Positions 7,069 through 47,629 of a DNA stretch of 64,000 nucleotides are shown in pieces. Under the pieces are notes generated by a model. The model was given only the letters and a program-made list of their open reading frames with translations. It did not search any database and was not told the DNA's origin. The first letter of the stretch is position 1; each line of letters begins with the position of its first letter. The position numbers and the translations under genes are program-made. Location of the stretch: NCBI GenBank assembly GCA_943789165.1, contig CALSTB010000003.1, positions 191,980 through 255,979 of the forward strand, read 5' to 3'. The DNA is from an uncultured Bacteroidia bacterium (GTDB lineage Bacteria > Bacteroidota > Bacteroidia > NS11-12g > UBA9320).

Positions 7069-10000
7069 ATGAAAAACAGGTTTACAAGTTTAAAAATTAA
7101 GAATCTTGGTTCGTGGAATCGATTTTCTTTACTGTTGGCTGCAGTAATTCTTTCCGCTGTATCCGTTTCGGCACAGTATTGTCAATCCGGATGGCAGAAC
7201 GCTTATTGTTCACTCAACGGAATGTCAATTGAGTCCGTAACGATTAGCACAAGTGGTACCACTATTTATAGTAAGGCTGCCGACGGTTGTAACGGAACCA
7301 CTACCTCGAGTAGTACGTTAATTACATCAACCTCTGCCTTTACATTAAACGGCGGTTCAAACTATGACATCGCAATTGGTTGTGGTCGATTCCCTATGAA
7401 TATGGGCGTTTGGATTGATCTAAACAATGATCAAGATTTTGATGACGCTGGAGAATTTGTTTCCTCTTCTTGGACTCAACAAGCAGCAAACTCGACGAAG
7501 ACCTATTCATTTACGGTTGGTTGTAAAAACATCAAAACAGGTGTTACTAGAATGCGTATTAAAGGTGATTACTACTTAGGTAATACTCACTCAGCGACTT
7601 CTTCTTGTAATACTTTGTCTTATGGTGAAGAAGAAGATTACACTATGACATTAGCGGTTTCTGGAACATTAGCAGCTGGATTCTTCATGGTTGATACTGC
7701 CTTCGTTAAGACTAAAGTAAACATGATTAACAATAACCAAACTGGTTATCAGTATCATGGTTGGGACATCGGAGACGACGGATCAATTGATTACACAACA
7801 ACTAACGTTACAGAAAAATTCACTTCAACAGGTAAATACTGTGTGAGACTTTATTCTGAAAACTGTTTAGGTAGAGACTCTTCGTTAAGATGTATTGAAA
7901 TCGTAACTCCAACTGCACCTCCAGTGGCTGATTTCGTATCTAGCTCAAACGCAGTTGAATTATATAATACTTTCCAGTTAACCGACCTTTCTACGAATGG
8001 TGCGATTTATTGGGAGTGGTTTATGTATCAACAAGCGGATTCAGCTGGAACACACATCGACATCGCTCAAGGTGGTTCTGATGCAGATCAAAACCCAGAA
8101 GTATTCTCTGCTAAGGGCATTCCAGGTTTCCCAGATGTTGGAAAATGGTGTGTTGGTTTGACTTCTTCAAACGACATTGGTGCTTCTGTAACTATGATTA
8201 AAAAGGACTACATCGAAATCCTTAAGGGTTGTGACGTAGAAATGGGTCCTGGTACTTTGACTTCAATTTCTGGTAACGTAATTACTTGTACTGCAGGTAC
8301 AATGATTAGTAAGACTGATGGTTCTGGTAACTATTCTGCAAACGAAAATGGCCTTGACGCCTTAATCGCTCCTTGTGGTGCGACTTCTATAACCTTCACT
8401 TTTGACAAGTGGAAAGTAAAAGCTGGTGTTAACTTAAAAGTATATGACGGTCAAGATGCAACTGGAATTGCATTACACCCTAACAATGGATTTGATGCAT
8501 CTAATGCACCTACTACCCCAGTCGTTGCTAAATCTGGCGCTTTATATTTCTTATGGAATTCAGGTGCTGCTACTGACGAAGGATTTTTAGGTCACTGGAC
8601 TTCAACTATTGGAAGCCAAGCGCCTCCAGTTGCAAGTTTTGCTGGTCCAGATACTATTTACAACGCAGTATTTAACAAGTTCGAAAACACGTCTCAAAAC
8701 GCAGTTGGAGAAGTATTTTATACATGGGAAGTAGATGGTAACTTAGAAAGCAATGCCAAAAACTTAGATTATATCTCTTTCAGTAACAAGACTTACAACA
8801 TCTGTTTAACAGTTGAGACTTGTGCTGGTAAAAACAAATCTTGTAGAAACATCGTTGTTGCGCCAATCACGTCTAAAACTAACTTAGATTTTGAAGCTGA
8901 CAACAGACGTCCAAAAGCTGGTGACGATATCACCTTTACAAGTATTGCTGATAAAGCAAACTCATTTAAGTGGACATTCTTCCCAAGTACTTCTGTAACC
9001 TTTACAGGTGGAACGGATGAATTCTCTGCAAATCCTCAAGTAGCATTCTCTGCTCCTGGTAAGTACACTGTATCTTTAAAAGGATGGAATAACTTATCTC
9101 CAACAGATTCAGCTACTTCATACGCACAGGTAATTAAGGACCAATACATCATTGTAATTGATTACTGTAAGCCAGTTATTGGTGTAACTACTAGTACTGA
9201 CGTTGCCATTAGCCAAGTAATCTTGGAAGACAATGCAACTCCAAGAGCAACTTTAATTGACAACGAGTCAACTGAAGAAATTGGATACACTAATTTCATC
9301 GAAGACATCAGAGCTGCTGAATTAACGTTTGGTGGCACTTACAACTTAACAATCGCTAGACAAACAAGTGCCAACAAAGTGAACCGTAAGGTATGGATTG
9401 ATTGGAACATTGATGGTGATTTTGATGACAACGGTGAGTTGGTATTAAATGAAGGCACAACTCAAAACAAAGTTGTTATGGGTAGCTTTACTGTACCTGA
9501 CTTAGCAAATTCATTTGAAGGAACAACTAGAATGAGAGTTGGTATTAGCTATAACAATGATCCTAACATGCCATGTGGTGCTTCAAGTGGAGTTGCCGGT
9601 GCAAACAGAATTGGAGAATTTGAAGATTACGCTTTAATCTTAGCGAATGACAACACTACTCCGATCATTACTCTAAATGGTTCTGATACTGTTTATGTAG
9701 AAGTTGGATCAACTTATGCGGATGCAGGTGCAACTGCTTATGACCCAACTGAAGGTGATATCTCATCTCGTTTAACTTCATCAAGCGACGTTGATGATCA
9801 AGCAGCAGGTATCTACTATGTTACTTACTGTGTATCTGATGCATCAGGTAACGCTGCTCCATGTGTAACACGTGTTGTATATGTGGTAGTTGACCAGTCT
9901 GCTCCAGAATTGACTTTATTAGGTGCTGATACCGTTTATGTTGACGTAATCACTGGTAAGTATACTGAGCCAGGCTTTACTGCAATTGACAAAACGGATG

Positions 10001-11187
10001 GTGACCTTAAAACAGCTGTTCAGGTAACTGGATCAGTAGATATCTTCAAAATTGGATCTTACACCTTGACTTATACAGTTCAAGATGCACAATCTAACGT
10101 TGCAACAGCAACAAGAACTGTAATCGTTCGTGACTTGGTATTCCCAACAATCACTAATGATGAAATGAAAGCTGGAAACATTGTAGAAGTACAATTACAA
10201 TCTGTATTCGTTGATAGAACTGTTCCTGCTGATAACTACAGCAACGGTACTTTCGGTCCACGTTTCACTTATGTAATCTCTCCTTCTAACGCACAAGGTG
10301 ATGCAGACGTTGATACAAGAGTAAAAGGAACAACTGTAGTTACTTACAAAGTGACTGACGAGTCAATGAACGAAACTACTTTAGTTATTAACTACGTAGT
10401 TGAAGATTACATTGCTCCAGTGATTTCTTTGAATACACTTGACACTGTTTATCACAATGTAAACGATCCTTATACACCAGTTAAAGCGAGTGTAACTGAT
10501 AACTTATATGACAATACACAAGTATCGTTGACACGTACAAGTAATGTGAACCCATTCCAATTAGGATTGTACACAGATACTTATACTGCAACGGATGCAT
10601 CTGGTAACGTAACAGTTAGAAACAGATGGGTACGTGTACTTGACAACGAGAGCCCAGAAATTAGCTCTAAAGTTGGACCAATTGTTAAGTTAGGATTGTT
10701 CTCAAATGTACAATTGAGTGAATACTTGAAACTTACTGACAACTACGATTCACCTAAATTATTAGGCGACAATCTTCAAGTAACTTTCAACGACGTAAAC
10801 TTCTACCAAGAAGGTTTCTACGCAGCTGAATTTATTACTACTGATAATTCAGGTAATGTATCTCGTACTTATAGAATGTATGTTGACGTAAGAAGTCATT
10901 ACGAAAGAATCACAAATGGTGTTGAAACCATTGCTGAAGGATCGTTAATGAATATTTATCCTAATCCATCAAATGGTATCTTCAACGTGTCTTTTGACTT
11001 ACCTTCTCAACAAGACGTAACTGTTGCTATCTACGACATGATGGGTAACCAAGTTGCAGACGTAATTGCTGGTCAACTTCAAACAGGTTCTTACACAGTT
11101 GACATGACTGGTAAGGCTGCTGGAATGTACTTTGTACGTATGACTGCAGACAACCAAGTGTTTAACCAAAAAGTAATTATCGACTAA
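7069..11187 (+). CDS. 1372-aa secreted multidomain protein with a T9SS C-terminal sorting domain
   Basis: Signal peptide. Two GEVED-like motifs (GEEEDYTMT, GEFEDYALI). PKD-like segments. At least five tandem Ig-like modules of the DUF5011/HYR type (…TLNGSDTVYVEVGSTYADAGATAYD…). The C-terminus (IYPNPSNGIFNVSF…YFVRM…KVIID) is typical of the Por secretion tail. Confidence 0.85.
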   Translation: MKNRFTSLKIKNLGSWNRFSLLLAAVILSAVSVSAQYCQSGWQNAYCSLNGMSIESVTISTSGTTIYSKAADGCNGTTTSSSTLITSTSAFTLNGGSNYDIAIGCGRFPMNMGVWIDLNNDQDFDDAGEFVSSSWTQQAANSTKTYSFTVGCKNIKTGVTRMRIKGDYYLGNTHSATSSCNTLSYGEEEDYTMTLAVSGTLAAGFFMVDTAFVKTKVNMINNNQTGYQYHGWDIGDDGSIDYTTTNVTEKFTSTGKYCVRLYSENCLGRDSSLRCIEIVTPTAPPVADFVSSSNAVELYNTFQLTDLSTNGAIYWEWFMYQQADSAGTHIDIAQGGSDADQNPEVFSAKGIPGFPDVGKWCVGLTSSNDIGASVTMIKKDYIEILKGCDVEMGPGTLTSISGNVITCTAGTMISKTDGSGNYSANENGLDALIAPCGATSITFTFDKWKVKAGVNLKVYDGQDATGIALHPNNGFDASNAPTTPVVAKSGALYFLWNSGAATDEGFLGHWTSTIGSQAPPVASFAGPDTIYNAVFNKFENTSQNAVGEVFYTWEVDGNLESNAKNLDYISFSNKTYNICLTVETCAGKNKSCRNIVVAPITSKTNLDFEADNRRPKAGDDITFTSIADKANSFKWTFFPSTSVTFTGGTDEFSANPQVAFSAPGKYTVSLKGWNNLSPTDSATSYAQVIKDQYIIVIDYCKPVIGVTTSTDVAISQVILEDNATPRATLIDNESTEEIGYTNFIEDIRAAELTFGGTYNLTIARQTSANKVNRKVWIDWNIDGDFDDNGELVLNEGTTQNKVVMGSFTVPDLANSFEGTTRMRVGISYNNDPNMPCGASSGVAGANRIGEFEDYALILANDNTTPIITLNGSDTVYVEVGSTYADAGATAYDPTEGDISSRLTSSSDVDDQAAGIYYVTYCVSDASGNAAPCVTRVVYVVVDQSAPELTLLGADTVYVDVITGKYTEPGFTAIDKTDGDLKTAVQVTGSVDIFKIGSYTLTYTVQDAQSNVATATRTVIVRDLVFPTITNDEMKAGNIVEVQLQSVFVDRTVPADNYSNGTFGPRFTYVISPSNAQGDADVDTRVKGTTVVTYKVTDESMNETTLVINYVVEDYIAPVISLNTLDTVYHNVNDPYTPVKASVTDNLYDNTQVSLTRTSNVNPFQLGLYTDTYTATDASGNVTVRNRWVRVLDNESPEISSKVGPIVKLGLFSNVQLSEYLKLTDNYDSPKLLGDNLQVTFNDVNFYQEGFYAAEFITTDNSGNVSRTYRMYVDVRSHYERITNGVETIAEGSLMNIYPNPSNGIFNVSFDLPSQQDVTVAIYDMMGNQVADVIAGQLQTGSYTVDMTGKAAGMYFVRMTADNQVFNQKVIID

Positions 11188-44366: not shown

Positions 44367-44437
44367 AAATTAGGCAAAGATTTTATCTTTGTCCCTCCTA
44401 CGCTATAACTCCTTAGCTAAAGCTACGGAGTTTAATT

Positions 44438-44511
44438 GGGCCTATAGCTCAGTTGGTTAGAGCAACTGACTCATAATCAGTAGGTCCATGGTTCGAGTCC
44501 ATGTGGGCCCA
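44438..44511 (+). tRNA. tRNA with a CAU anticodon (elongator Met, or Ile2 if lysidine-modified)
   Basis: I folded a 74-nt cloverleaf by hand. Acceptor GGGCCTA/TGGGCCC; D arm GCTC-AGTTGGTTA-GAGC; anticodon stem ACTGA/TCAGT with loop CTCATAA; T arm CATGG-TTCGAGT-CCATG. No CCA is encoded. Confidence 0.9.
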
Positions 44512-44521
44512 CCCTTTGAAT

Positions 44522-44991: not shown

Positions 44992-45360
44992 CTGAGTGAT
45001 AACGGTTCTTGCTACATCAGTTCAGAACTTGCTAAATATATTCAAGACAAAGGAATGAGTCATGTTCGCGGAAGACCAATGCATCCGCAGACTCAGGGGA
45101 AGATAGAACGTTGGCACAGGTCAATGAAAAATGTGGTGAAACTTGAAAATTATTATTTACCTGGTGATTTGACAAACAGACTTGAAGAGTTTGTTGAGTA
45201 TTACAACAATGAACGGTATCATGAATCACTTCAAAACCTAACACCAGCAGACGTGTACTTTGGACGCAGCCAAGAGATATTAGATCAAAGACATTTAATT
45301 AAACTAAAAACAATGAAAAAAAGAAGAAAGCAACACCTGTTGCAAAGATTAAATTTATGA
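44992..45360 (+). pseudogene. 5'-truncated DDE (rve) transposase remnant, IS481/IS3-like
   Basis: The frame opens right after an in-frame TAG and reads LSDNGSCYISSELAKYIQDKGMSHVRGRPMHPQTQGKIERWHRS…YNNERYHESL. This is only the last third or so of an integrase-core transposase. No N-terminal part and no terminal inverted repeats are visible. Confidence 0.8.
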
Positions 45361-45404
45361 CTTAATTTTGACTATCTCTGGTAAACATTAGTTTGAAGAC
45401 TTAC

Positions 45405-45476
45405 AAATATACATCTGATTCCGATAAACAAAAATTTGCAGAAGCCTTATTGAAAGAAATGGGCAATTGCAATTAA
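45405..45476 (+). pseudogene. 3' end of a second copy of the 45753-46076 lipoprotein gene, truncated next to the transposase remnant
   Basis: Encodes …KYTSDSDKQKFAEALLKEMGNCN*, identical to the end of the intact copy. Homology stops abruptly at 45405. Confidence 0.7.
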
Positions 45477-45487
45477 TTTAATAAACA

Positions 45488-45547
45488 AGTGGAGACAGAC
45501 CCCACTATAAAAACGAGGCGTATTCCGAAAAGCCTTATGAGTAGGAA
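45488..45547 (+). promoter_or_regulatory. conserved leader element, A-type copy 1
   Basis: AGTGG-loop-CCACT hairpin, A-run, AGGC…GCCT stem, then ATGAGTAGGAA. Confidence 0.5.
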
Positions 45548-45626
45548 AAACATTATTAAAGCTAATATTATTTGGATTATCGTTTATGCAGTTTTTATGG
45601 GATACACATTAAGCAAATTCTCGTGA
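45537..45626 (+). CDS. 29-aa hydrophobic micro-ORF (MSRKNIIKANIIWIIVYAVFMGYTLSKFS), copy 1
   Basis: It starts at the conserved ATGAGTAGG of the leader element and has a single predicted TM segment. It is below the ORF-track cutoff. Confidence 0.35.
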   Translation: MSRKNIIKANIIWIIVYAVFMGYTLSKFS

Positions 45627-45785
45627 AAAAACCAAGACGGTCTGCGAAAGCCAAAGGGTTGACCACCAGATGTGACAAAAAATTATATTACTGAACTTTA
45701 AAGTGGAGTCCAGAACCCACTCTAAAAAACGGGGCGTATTCTGAAAAGCCTTATGAGTAGGAACAAATTTAATTTAAGAAAAATG
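45627..45785. repeat. repeat B, copy 1 (matches 46378-46536 with 2 mismatches)
   Basis: 159 bp covering a promoter-like stretch (TTGACC-N19-TATATT), the leader and the first 11 codons. The offset is 751 bp. Confidence 0.9.
45702..45763 (+). promoter_or_regulatory. conserved leader element, B-type copy 1
   Basis: Same architecture as the A-type: AGTGG/CCACT hairpin with a different loop, then GGGC…GCCT, then ATGAGTAGGAA. Confidence 0.5.
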
Positions 45786-46076
45786 AAAAAAGTAATGACA
45801 ATTTTCGGAGCAATCATATTTGCTTCAACAATTCTGACAAGCTGTGGAGGCGGATCTATTGAAAGTGATGCTAAAAAAGTGGCAGAACTTCAATGTAAAG
45901 CTCAACAACTAATGAAGAAAGCAACATCTGGAGATATGTCCGTGATGGAAGAAAGCACCAAGTTGGCTTCTGAAGCGGCAACTTTATCACAAGAAATGGA
46001 AGGGAAATATACATCTGATTCCGATAAACAAAAATTTGCAGAAGCCTTATTGAAAGAAATGGGCAATTGCAATTAA
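45753..46076 (+). CDS. small helical lipoprotein (107 aa from the conserved ATG; alternative start at 45783)
   Basis: MSRNKFNLRKMKKVMTIFGAIIFASTILTSCGGG gives a signal peptide with a lipobox Cys. Confidence 0.65.
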   Translation: MSRNKFNLRKMKKVMTIFGAIIFASTILTSCGGGSIESDAKKVAELQCKAQQLMKKATSGDMSVMEESTKLASEAATLSQEMEGKYTSDSDKQKFAEALLKEMGNCN

Positions 46077-46087
46077 TTTAATAAACA

Positions 46088-46147
46088 AGTGGAGACAGAC
46101 CCCACTATAAAAACGAGGCGTATTCCGAAAAGCCTTATGAGTAGGAA
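46088..46147 (+). promoter_or_regulatory. conserved leader element, A-type copy 2
   Basis: Identical to 45488-45547. Confidence 0.5.
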
Positions 46148-46226
46148 AAACATTATTAAAGCTAATATTATTTGGATTATCGTTTATGCAGTTTTTATGG
46201 GATACACATTAAGCAAATTCTCGTGA
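46137..46226 (+). CDS. 29-aa hydrophobic micro-ORF, copy 2
   Basis: Identical to 45537-45626. Confidence 0.35.
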   Translation: MSRKNIIKANIIWIIVYAVFMGYTLSKFS

Positions 46227-46234
46227 AAAAACCA

Positions 46235-46377
46235 GCCCATAACCGCACCTACCCGCAAGTGGTTCGGTTGTGGGTTATTTTAACTTTTGTGCTTCTAATA
46301 AATTTGGCGCTAAATTGACAGTGAAGTGTTTCAAAAGCCCCACCTTCGGGTAGCTGCCAACCGTTATGGGCAAGTTT
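46235..46377. mobile_element. 143-bp insertion flanked by the 8-bp direct repeat AAAAACCA, with subterminal inverted repeats (MITE-like)
   Basis: The A/B junction is contiguous in copy 1 (45634|45635) but split in copy 2. AAAAACCA is present at 46227-46234 and 46378-46385. GCCCATAAC (46235-46243) pairs with GTTATGGGC (46363-46371). Confidence 0.45.
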
Positions 46378-46536
46378 AAAAACCAAGACGGTCTGCGAAA
46401 GCCAAAGGGTTGACCACCCAATGTGACAAAAAATTATATTACTGAACTTTAAAGTGGAGTCCAGAACCCACTCTAAAAAACGGGGCGTATTCTGAAAAGC
46501 CTTATGAGTAGGAACAAATTTAATTTAAGAAAAATG
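46378..46536. repeat. repeat B, copy 2
   Basis: Matches 45627-45785. The mismatches correspond to 45668-45669. Confidence 0.9.
46453..46514 (+). promoter_or_regulatory. conserved leader element, B-type copy 2
   Basis: Identical to 45702-45763. Confidence 0.5.
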
Positions 46537-47304
46537 GAAAAAAATTTACCTTTTGTATCCTTATCGCTTACTGATAAAGGTTACAACAAACTAGTCATCC
46601 CTTTTTTAGGGAAACTAGATGACGGAAATGTTTTTAAAAACATTATTATACTTTTACTTACCGTTTTAGCAATTGGTCTTTTACTAGGAGGGATTTATCT
46701 AAGCTTTGATGGCTTGTTTGGAGATTCTGGATTTATTAAAAGCTATATTTCAAACGAGTATTTAAGTGGGGGTAAAAAAGTGGGTGCTGTTGTTGGCCTA
46801 ATCCTTGGCTTTGCAATCAGCATTTTAACCGCTTGGGTTTTATTTAGTGTTTTAAAAAAGCGCTCAGAGCAAATGAAAACCATCGAATATGACGGTCTAT
46901 TATCCTTTATTTTTGTGAAAACTTTACCTAAATTAATTTTGGTAATAGGTGAATTACTATTTGTTCTATTTTTATATGCGGGTATACTTCAAATCATTGC
47001 GGCTTTAGTGGGTTCTTTTGTATATGCGCCATTAATTGAATATCCTGCATTATTATTAAGTATTTTTCCAGGAATGGATGTTTTCACAGGATTAGTTCCT
47101 CAACAAATTGTTGGTGATTATGACTATTTTGGAGAATATATTAAAATAGGAGTTTTGAGCATAGCTGGATCATTTCTTTTGCTAATAGCATTTTATATAT
47201 ACAAAGAAATCTATAATTACATATTGAAACTGGTAACAAATCTAATCTCATTTTTACCAAAATTTGCTATTCCTCTTGCAATAAGAAAGAAAGACGAAAA
47301 TTAA
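46504..47304 (+). CDS. polytopic membrane protein of unknown function
   Basis: 266 aa. It has the same first 11 codons (MSRNKFNLRKM) as the lipoprotein gene, followed by unrelated sequence with about 5-6 hydrophobic helices. Confidence 0.65.
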   Translation: MSRNKFNLRKMEKNLPFVSLSLTDKGYNKLVIPFLGKLDDGNVFKNIIILLLTVLAIGLLLGGIYLSFDGLFGDSGFIKSYISNEYLSGGKKVGAVVGLILGFAISILTAWVLFSVLKKRSEQMKTIEYDGLLSFIFVKTLPKLILVIGELLFVLFLYAGILQIIAALVGSFVYAPLIEYPALLLSIFPGMDVFTGLVPQQIVGDYDYFGEYIKIGVLSIAGSFLLLIAFYIYKEIYNYILKLVTNLISFLPKFAIPLAIRKKDEN

Positions 47305-47443
47305 TTGACAAAACCAGCCCATAACCGCAAATAAGCGCAAGCAGGGTTATAGTGCTTCGAAGGACAGGACAGTAGGAATTTTTAAGTTCTGTTCTTCGTG
47401 GTAATGTAAAATGTCAGCCTAATGTTTACCACTTAAGAGATAA

Positions 47444-47629
47444 AATGGTACTTGGTCCAAAGACCAATTTGTAACCGCAGTTAAAACGGGTATGATTCAA
47501 AATCAAGAAGCGCTGCGATATCCTATGCTGCCATACACACAACTAACAGATTATGAAGTAGGTTGTATTTATGAGTATTTACAAACCATTCCTGCAATTT
47601 CGAATAAAGTGGAACGCAGCGGTTTATAA
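47444..47629 (+). pseudogene. 3' fragment of a c-type-cytochrome-like gene
   Basis: Frame open for 61 codons after an in-frame TAA, with no start codon. It ends …ALRYPMLPYTQLTDYEVGCIYEYLQTIPAISNKVERSGL*, resembling the C-terminal helix of class I cytochromes c. The CxxCH part is absent. Confidence 0.4.

Follow-up and report, generated by a model that had tools for sequence, protein, structure and literature searches.

The stretch analysed here, a 64,000-nucleotide window from an uncultured Bacteroidia bacterium, carries at 45405-47404 a block of small envelope-protein genes in which a hairpin-containing leader occurs four times (Table 1). Reading the sequence confirmed the coordinates that an initial annotation had given for all four copies: an A-type sequence at 45488-45547 and 46088-46147, and a B-type sequence at 45702-45763 and 46453-46514. 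A 31-nt core pattern matched these four sites alone in the 64-kb window, where shuffled sequences lead one to expect none. An Rfam scan of the whole window returned five matches, namely one tRNA and four full-length copies of RF03081 (DUF805 RNA, clan CL00115), a class that Rfam lists as candidate cis-regulatory. All four span model positions 1-68 of 68, at scores above the gathering level of 51.1 bits, and they score higher as RF03081 than as the related RF02914 (DUF805b). The leader is a member of a catalogued family and hence already known. The initial annotation had not recognised it as a known riboswitch or leader family, and had proposed a comparison with Rfam in which a match to a described family would count against it; that comparison gave full-length matches (scores in Table 1). 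Because the RF03081 consensus already includes ...GAAAAgCCAuAuGAGUAGGAaAaaa, the "ATGAGTAGGAA" into which both types run is part of the known motif. RF03081 comes from the comparative genomics survey of Weinberg et al. 2017 (PMC5737381), whose main text does not mention the motif.

The number of copies follows from two long repeats. Repeat D1 (45405-45634 versus 46005-46234) is 100% identical and repeat D2 (45627-45791 versus 46378-46542) is 98% identical; the four copies are therefore two leaders, A and B, both doubled by one recent duplication of ~600 bp. "Four times" thus holds as a count of copies but not as a count of independent instances. The duplication also bears on an alternative in which the A and B types are themselves diverged, functionless copies of one gene's 5' end. 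The identity of A1 with A2 and the near-identity of B1 with B2 agree with it, but the similarity between A and B is that of family members. The motif, which the initial annotation had allowed might exist only inside this recent duplication, is carried by more than 100 genomes from several Bacteroidota orders, where unrelated genes lie downstream, the spacing to the start codon is fixed and the helices show compensatory changes. We regard the diverged-copies explanation as extremely improbable.

Table 1. Features of the cassette block and its surroundings (positions in the window).
Feature	Position	Strand	Evidence or remark
DUF805 RNA copy A1	45484-45551	+	RF03081, 71.8 bits
DUF805 RNA copy B1, lipoprotein gene leader	45698-45767	+	RF03081, 79.4 bits
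DUF805 RNA copy A2, identical to A1, inside repeat D1	46084-46151	+	RF03081, 71.8 bits
DUF805 RNA copy B2, leader of the 256-aa membrane protein gene	46449-46518	+	RF03081, 79.4 bits
97-aa lipoprotein gene (MKKVMTIFGAIIFASTILTSC..., lipoprotein signal)	45783-46076	+	true open reading frame behind B1
256-aa polytopic membrane protein gene (MEKNLPF...)	46534-47304	+	true open reading frame behind B2
29-aa frame, copy 1, remnant of a 114-aa membrane-protein gene	45537-45626	+	308-bp deletion
29-aa frame, copy 2, same remnant	46137-46226	+	duplicate of copy 1
Second lipoprotein gene copy, 3' end	45405-45476	+	cut by insertion sequence end at 45405
attC-like imperfect palindrome, complete	46229-46377		inverted repeat I6
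attC-like palindrome of the 256-aa cassette, 5' half, cut by insertion sequence	47311-47404		repeats D6, I7
Type I conserved ~70-nt region (CCAAGACGGTCTGCGAAAGCCAAAGGGTTGACCACCCAATGTGACAAAAAA...)	46378-46448; second copy 45627-45697	+	repeat D2
3' fragment of IS3-family transposase with terminal inverted repeat (45379-45405)	45055-45405	+	Pfam rve_3, E = 6e-12
Solo insertion sequence end, inverted copy of 45379-45405	47405-47431		I1: 27 nt, 78% complementary
tRNA-Met gene, left of the block	44437-44514	+	ARAGORN and Rfam tRNA match

The architecture of the leader is the same in all four window copies. Hairpin P1, (A)GUGG/CCAC(U), has a conserved 10-nt loop, and each copy has the loop AGnCCAGAAn on the GUGG/CCAC stem. 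An A-rich linker separates P1 from P2, a 3-bp hairpin (GGC/GCC) whose loop ends in GAAAA, and P2 is followed by the single-stranded conserved tail NNG-AGUAGG-A, which in all four copies reads GAGUAGGA. The AGTGG/CCACT stem described by the initial annotation is therefore present in every copy, and of its second stem the GGC/GCC core stands in all four; the proposed fourth pair, A-U in one type and G-U in the other, is unconserved across the family, and we rejected it as an extension of P2. In an alignment of 79 members, 96% of the P2 cells are paired, and 2-3 pairs show changes on both sides. The pairing of P1 was fixed by our search pattern, and its variation was judged from copies outside that pattern: a covariance model that we built found 26 more, among which there are double changes at 3 P1 pairs (GUUG/CAAC twice, GUGA/UCAC and AUGG/CCAU).

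A mutual-information scan of the 79 members revealed that columns 13 and 36 co-vary (C-G 54, U-G 9, U-A 8, other 8). Column 13 lies in the P1 loop (C or U) and column 36 in the linker (G or A), corresponding to C45710 and G45733 in the window B copy. These may form a tertiary pair between loop and linker, a post hoc observation drawn from events that are possibly non-independent. Two further pairings were rejected. Pairing of the AGUAGG tail with CCACU, the 3' arm of P1, as an alternative helix has no support, since by eye the copies with a compensated P1 keep the tail unchanged. A kissing contact of CAGAA in the P1 loop with UUCUG in the P2 loop fits the B type, yet the P1 loop is constant whatever the P2 loop.

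Variants of the motif bear on how its parts are combined. Some members have an optional extra hairpin between ACG and GGGCG. DUF805b, in the same clan, consists of P2 and the tail without P1, which distinguishes it from the window copies; the P2 hairpin and GAGUAGG tail are common to both, and P2-less variants also occur. In one variant leader, P1 and the A-rich linker are followed by the module GUGGCGACUACGC, with a GCG-ACUA-CGC hairpin, ~10 nt before the ATG; it was seen in L005 (minus strand, two sites), L049, L088, L119 and L121 (4212-4275; the L numbers denote the loci of our comparison set) and scored below the gathering level for both RF03081 and RF02914. A class with P1 only (AAAACGGCTTGCTTG...) was seen in four loci (L003, L057, L058 and L083). 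With P1-only, GUGGCGACUACGC and P2-only variants all present, the halves of the motif are separable modules.

The initial annotation had taken ATG-AGT-AGG as a start shared by three open reading frames (ORFs) of 107, 29 and 266 aa. All four window copies do have the ATG, and its frame is open into each of the three, which would fit a common N-terminal Met-Ser-Arg or a regulatory leader peptide. We surveyed relatives with the P1-hairpin pattern, one genome per species, which gave at least 120 loci; all survey counts below are among the matches listed. Almost all loci belong to Bacteroidota (Flavobacteriales, Bacteroidales, Chitinophagales, Cytophagales and Sphingobacteriales), and the full motif is present in 85. 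In these 85 the triplet before AGUAGG is ATG in 34, ACG in 31, AAG in 16 and another in 4. The first ATG to open an ORF of at least 30 aa follows the tail at a median of 20 nt (interquartile range 17-23). Where the triplet is ATG, it is in frame with, and open into, the downstream ORF in 6 of 34 cases, and most such frames are open for 4-12 codons. These comparisons indicate that the motif ATG is the variable NNG of the conserved tail and not a start codon.

Genes of the window agree with this. The AGUAGG tails of B1 and B2 each end 21 nt before an ATG, at 45783 and 46534, so that both B copies lie on the sense strand of their gene at the expected place; the genes behind the A copies are deleted. 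The exact 97-aa product is a called gene on 9 other contigs, starting MKKVMT, and in the lipoprotein homologues of two loci (L042 and L108) a stop codon lies between the motif ATG and the MKK start. The exact 256-aa product is a called gene in L121, starting MEKNLPF, and its homologue in L105 has a leader of the ACG type, whose motif contains no ATG. On the basis of the triplet counts and reading frames we discarded a shared start codon or leader peptide, which we hold to be very improbable. The three ORFs do open mechanically at the motif ATG, but the true starts lie downstream. In this window the motif ATG misleads ORF calling, adding 10 false codons to each of two genes and producing a false 29-aa "peptide".

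That 29-aa frame, described in the initial annotation as a single-transmembrane peptide, is by alignment and translation a pseudogene remnant left by a deletion. An identical A-type leader occurs on six other contigs, each time followed by the gene for a 114-aa (or 122-aa) membrane protein. Compared with these contigs the window is without 308 bp that include the start of the 114-aa gene: window 45405-45556 and 45554-45634 correspond to L124 223-374 and 683-763 at 100%. The remnant joins the motif ATG and five codons (MSRKNI) in frame to the 23 C-terminal codons of the 114-aa protein, and it sits within a 45-aa ORF with a GTG start. It is present twice because of the duplication.

The genes behind the motif share little else. 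DUF805 RNAs are reportedly found upstream of genes for DUF805-domain proteins. Such a domain was found in 2 of 76 downstream genes in the survey, and the name-giving association is therefore weak; no window ORF matched PF05656 (DUF805) in Pfam. That association is descriptive and lies outside the covariance model, so that membership of RF03081 stands. The window copies differ from the family in that their genes are without a DUF805 domain, and resemble it in the full-length model match, both hairpins, the conserved loops, the GAGUAGGA tail, the Bacteroidota host and the sense-strand position. The other downstream genes mostly encode diverse small membrane, lipoprotein or secreted proteins, for example type IX secretion system-sorted proteins, DUF5684, Bor lipoproteins, YccF, TM2, 2TM and aquaporin, and many have no Pfam family. 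Two proposals of the initial annotation are borne out: conservation belongs to the leader and not to a protein family, and small envelope-protein genes carry a structured element on their sense strand. Pfam gave no recognisable immunity domain among the window genes.

A substantial part of the family lies in units with a common layout. Of the 85 full motifs, 25 (~29%) lie in recognisable TTATGGGC-type cassettes. Each unit runs from G↓TTATGGGCAAGTTTAAAA (the arrow marks the breakpoint) through a conserved region of ~70 nt, of which there are at least two types, to a DUF805-type leader, a spacer of ~20 nt, one or two ORFs and a palindrome. The 3' end consists of AAACCAGCCCATAAC, a variable but complementary stem and then ...AAACC-G↓TT. 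The palindromes follow directly after stop codons; their ends (AAACCAGCCCATAAC and GTTATGGGCAAGTTT) are conserved and the inner stem is variable yet compensated, and the same palindrome family, 55-160 nt long, was found in seven loci (L005, L039, L043, L071, L112, L115 and L121). In the window, the palindrome at 46229-46377 has an R'' box, GCCCATAAC, at 46235-46243 and an R' box, GTTATGGGC, at 46363-46371; with this palindrome the lipoprotein/114-aa cassette ends, and the 256-aa cassette is bounded by it on the 5' side. Folded as single-stranded DNA, its bottom strand has z = -3.1 and its top strand z = -1.75. The palindrome of the 256-aa cassette is cut in the window and whole in L121, where it ends in canonical GTTAGGC.

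Between the GTTATGGGC box and the leader lies the type I region, which contains a GC-GAAA-GC tetraloop-like hairpin and GGGYTGACCACCC..GTGACAAAA. It recurs upstream of the motif in several orders (L005, L036, L043, L061, L079, L088, L111 and L121), gave no Rfam match, and could be a promoter or another RNA element. In other cassettes it is replaced by a second region type (..GACAAGAGAACCACC..TTTGAYAGTTCTT..).

Comparison between genomes places the cassette boundary at the palindrome. The window is homologous to L121 from 46362 onwards (99% over 1 kb) and to L124 up to 46366, with both breakpoints inside CGTTA in the R' box; in terminal cassettes unrelated DNA follows the final GTT. The initial annotation had offered a cassette boundary as one explanation of the leader. 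Cassettes are indeed involved, but their boundary is the G↓TTATGGGC site ~90 nt upstream of the leader together with the attC-like palindrome after the gene, not the leader itself. Other motifs precede ordinary stand-alone genes ending in hairpin and T-run terminators, and the motif is therefore a general Bacteroidota leader rather than a cassette boundary or recombination site.

The same cassettes occur elsewhere. The lipoprotein cassette was seen at 95-100% nucleotide identity on 9 contigs from different samples (L122-L129 versus window 45700-46156). On the other contigs with the 97-aa gene, different genes come next; in L122 the exact 97-aa gene is the immediate downstream neighbour of a 385-aa tyrosine recombinase, and the genes that follow this recombinase are co-directional. 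In L121 a 371-aa tyrosine recombinase is followed by 12 short co-directional genes, a series that the exact 256-aa gene closes. The guanine plus cytosine (GC) content is 34.3% for the L121 cassette genes and 34.5% for the L122 cassette stretch (9787-11100), whose host DNA has ~31%. Its high identity across contigs, with one host at ~31% GC and the window at 41%, indicates that the lipoprotein cassette has recently spread horizontally.

The two recombinases are 39% identical to each other. Their best NCBIfam model is NF040815 (XerA/integron-integrase type), at about its cut-off. Against TIGR02249 (integron integrase) they scored 186.6 and 205 bits, below the cut-off of 265, and covered positions 5-179 (the first of two stretches in L122) and 236-315 (the best stretch in L121); the IntI-specific insertion is therefore read as absent. 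The catalytic Arg is 89 aa from HxxR, a Xer-like spacing. Searching metagenomes with the two recombinases yielded 80 loci. More than 20 of them have TATAAC-nn-GTT 15-130 nt after the recombinase stop codon, and the sequence after GTT differs each time (examples at L121 3389-3420, L122 9787-9830 and in L130-L194). This fits a candidate attI-like platform site. Solitary cassettes had no recombinase beside them: ten neighbouring ORFs and a 55-ORF Pfam sweep gave housekeeping genes, and the integrase matches in that sweep were the L121 and L122 recombinases alone, included as controls. In two marine loci an S15-Flavobacteria leader (RF03161) was seen 3-5 kb upstream of the recombinase (L141 3013-3077 and L149 727-794); its neighbourhood may be a conserved chromosomal location of the platform.

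With so many motifs in cassettes, the element might act as DNA. It could be a promoter or operator that travels with the cassette, or it could serve recombination at cassette junctions, as a site or as portable homology. Among genomes, the gene behind the lipoprotein gene changes exactly at the A-type motif, and the junction of the local duplication is a hybrid lying within the B leader, so the conserved sequence does act as recombination homology. However, the site-specific breakpoints fall at the GTTATGGGC box ~90 nt upstream and not at the motif, both helices keep their pairing through double changes, the element is found solely on the sense strand, with 17-23 nt between it and the start codon, and it also precedes the stand-alone genes with terminators. 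A -7 box (TAnnTTTG) was not enriched at a fixed distance upstream of P1, where we found only A-richness from -1 to -11; promoter boxes within the motif itself were checked by eye. A DNA-level role explains some local rearrangements, but neither the covariation nor the fixed spacing, and we consider it unlikely as the function of the element.

Placement and covariation instead suggest that the RNA would act in cis on the ORF behind it, at translation initiation or on mRNA stability. Bacteroidota generally lack Shine-Dalgarno-driven initiation. The RNA would abut the upstream edge of the ribosome-binding region, and since only ~20 A-rich nt separate it from the AUG there is no room for an expression platform of the terminator type. 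The downstream genes are unrelated, small, mostly of the envelope and partly mobile, which makes a common factor likelier than a pathway-specific metabolite; the input could be the ribosome or an RNA-binding protein as a common partner, or else a general signal related to the envelope. A metabolite or ion riboswitch, with P1, linker and P2 as aptamer and the tail as expression platform, would account for the very strong phylum-wide conservation of unpaired nucleotides, and the optional inserted hairpin, the possible loop-linker pair and the preponderance of membrane proteins downstream are in keeping with it. Its downstream genes, however, have no common pathway or transporter theme, the motif rides horizontally mobile cassettes of varied content, no ligand is known, and the P1-less (DUF805b) and P2-less variants favour two separable binding modules over one pocket. 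We view a riboswitch as a tentative possibility, on the doubtful side.

Taken together, we judge it highly probable that the window carries an RF03081 leader on duplicated integron-like cassettes, acting in cis on the ORF behind it. Several points weigh against this. The window contains no recombinase. None of the 80 metagenome recombinase loci contained the full DUF805 motif, and an additional Rfam scan of 14 of them found DUF805b in 1. We therefore rejected a general association between the recombinase family and the motif and narrowed the claim: only some of the cassettes are marked by the leader. Covariation is modest, the helices being short and highly conserved and one of the alignments behind it having been fitted to the model. 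Cassette mobility is deduced from comparative breakpoints, and a function at the RNA level, the place where transcription starts and any ligand or partner are likewise deduced.

The flanks of the block suggest how it reached its present form. Its GC content is 34.5%, against 41% in the flanks, and we read it as a probable fragment of an integron-like cassette array. Repeat D1 begins exactly at 45405, where the inverted repeat of the insertion sequence (IS) ends; at the other side the solo IS end closes the block, and homology to L121 stops at 47405. The IS fragment and the solo end, 2 kb apart, flank the block "inside-out", like the remains of a composite transposon. In the window the lipoprotein gene carries the leader of the 256-aa cassette, and a different upstream region precedes it in L122, L123 and L128. 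Most likely, unequal recombination between the B-type leaders of the lipoprotein and 256-aa cassettes duplicated the lipoprotein unit, which would explain why the two cassette-borne leaders are doubled. One downstream gene would then have lost the 308 bp, and one attC-like site would have been lost between direct repeats (AAAAACCA). An IS would have cut the first lipoprotein copy, with IS3-type elements cutting both ends of the block. Right after the IS end, a 61-codon frame (47444-47629) resembles the 3' end of a gene truncated by insertion; a reading of this fragment (47444-47626) as cytochrome c was dropped, there being no Pfam match. Exact-protein look-ups of the flanking genes, made for an empty-site comparison, returned no match.

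The surrounding system resembles integrons in several respects. Short co-oriented ORFs are each followed by an imperfect palindrome, and the array is headed by a tyrosine recombinase followed by a simple TATAAC-nn-GTT site. As judged by inspection and folding, the palindromes share with attC sites the ends ...AAC and GTT..., an asymmetric unpaired spacer and a variable, compensated stem of ~55-160 nt; genome-to-genome breakpoints fall at G↓TT, and one terminal cassette ends in GTTAGGC. In contrast to integrons, the recombinase is Xer-like, lacks the IntI-specific insertion and is transcribed in the direction of the cassettes, and these cassettes carry ~190 nt of conserved 5' sequence including the RNA leader. 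In published IntegronFinder surveys, integrons and attC clusters are almost absent from Bacteroidetes. Recombinase-associated acquired interbacterial defence arrays (rAID-1) of Bacteroidales have conserved intergenic motifs that were called "reminiscent of integrons" (Ross et al., bioRxiv 10.1101/471110; PMC12247911). They are defined by a 5' XerD-like recombinase at least 44% identical to BF9343_RS08045 and at least two co-directional genes with a GC content of at most 41% (10.1101/471110). The likeness, by description only, extends to the XerD-like recombinase, co-oriented genes of ~100-300 codons, low and skewed GC and intergenic motifs; on GC and co-direction, the 12 genes of L121 and the low-GC stretches of L122 and the window block all agree with the definition. 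The window differs in being an IS-bounded fragment without a recombinase. An integron-like layout of the rAID-1 kind thus matches the published description. These arrays also contain DUF805b, in L121 within the cassette that comes first after the recombinase and also in L159.

What is new is the context: a sizeable fraction of DUF805 leaders ride integron-like cassettes, a link that makes the RNA motif testable. As a broader proposal, for and against which we find the case evenly balanced, a large subset of the mobile cassettes in a Bacteroidota-wide integron analogue, probably of the rAID-1 kind, would have DUF805 and DUF805b RNAs as a self-contained expression leader, and the near-invariant sequence of these RNAs would serve as portable homology. 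Such an analogue would combine the Xer-like recombinase, the TATAAC-nn-GTT platform site and the attC-like hairpins, and the portable homology of the leader would duplicate and reshuffle cassette genes, as in this window. The "conserved intergenic motifs" of rAID-type arrays may then include a catalogued RNA family. If the proposal is true, the RNA motif gains a concrete biological setting, and rAID-like arrays extend beyond gut Bacteroidales.

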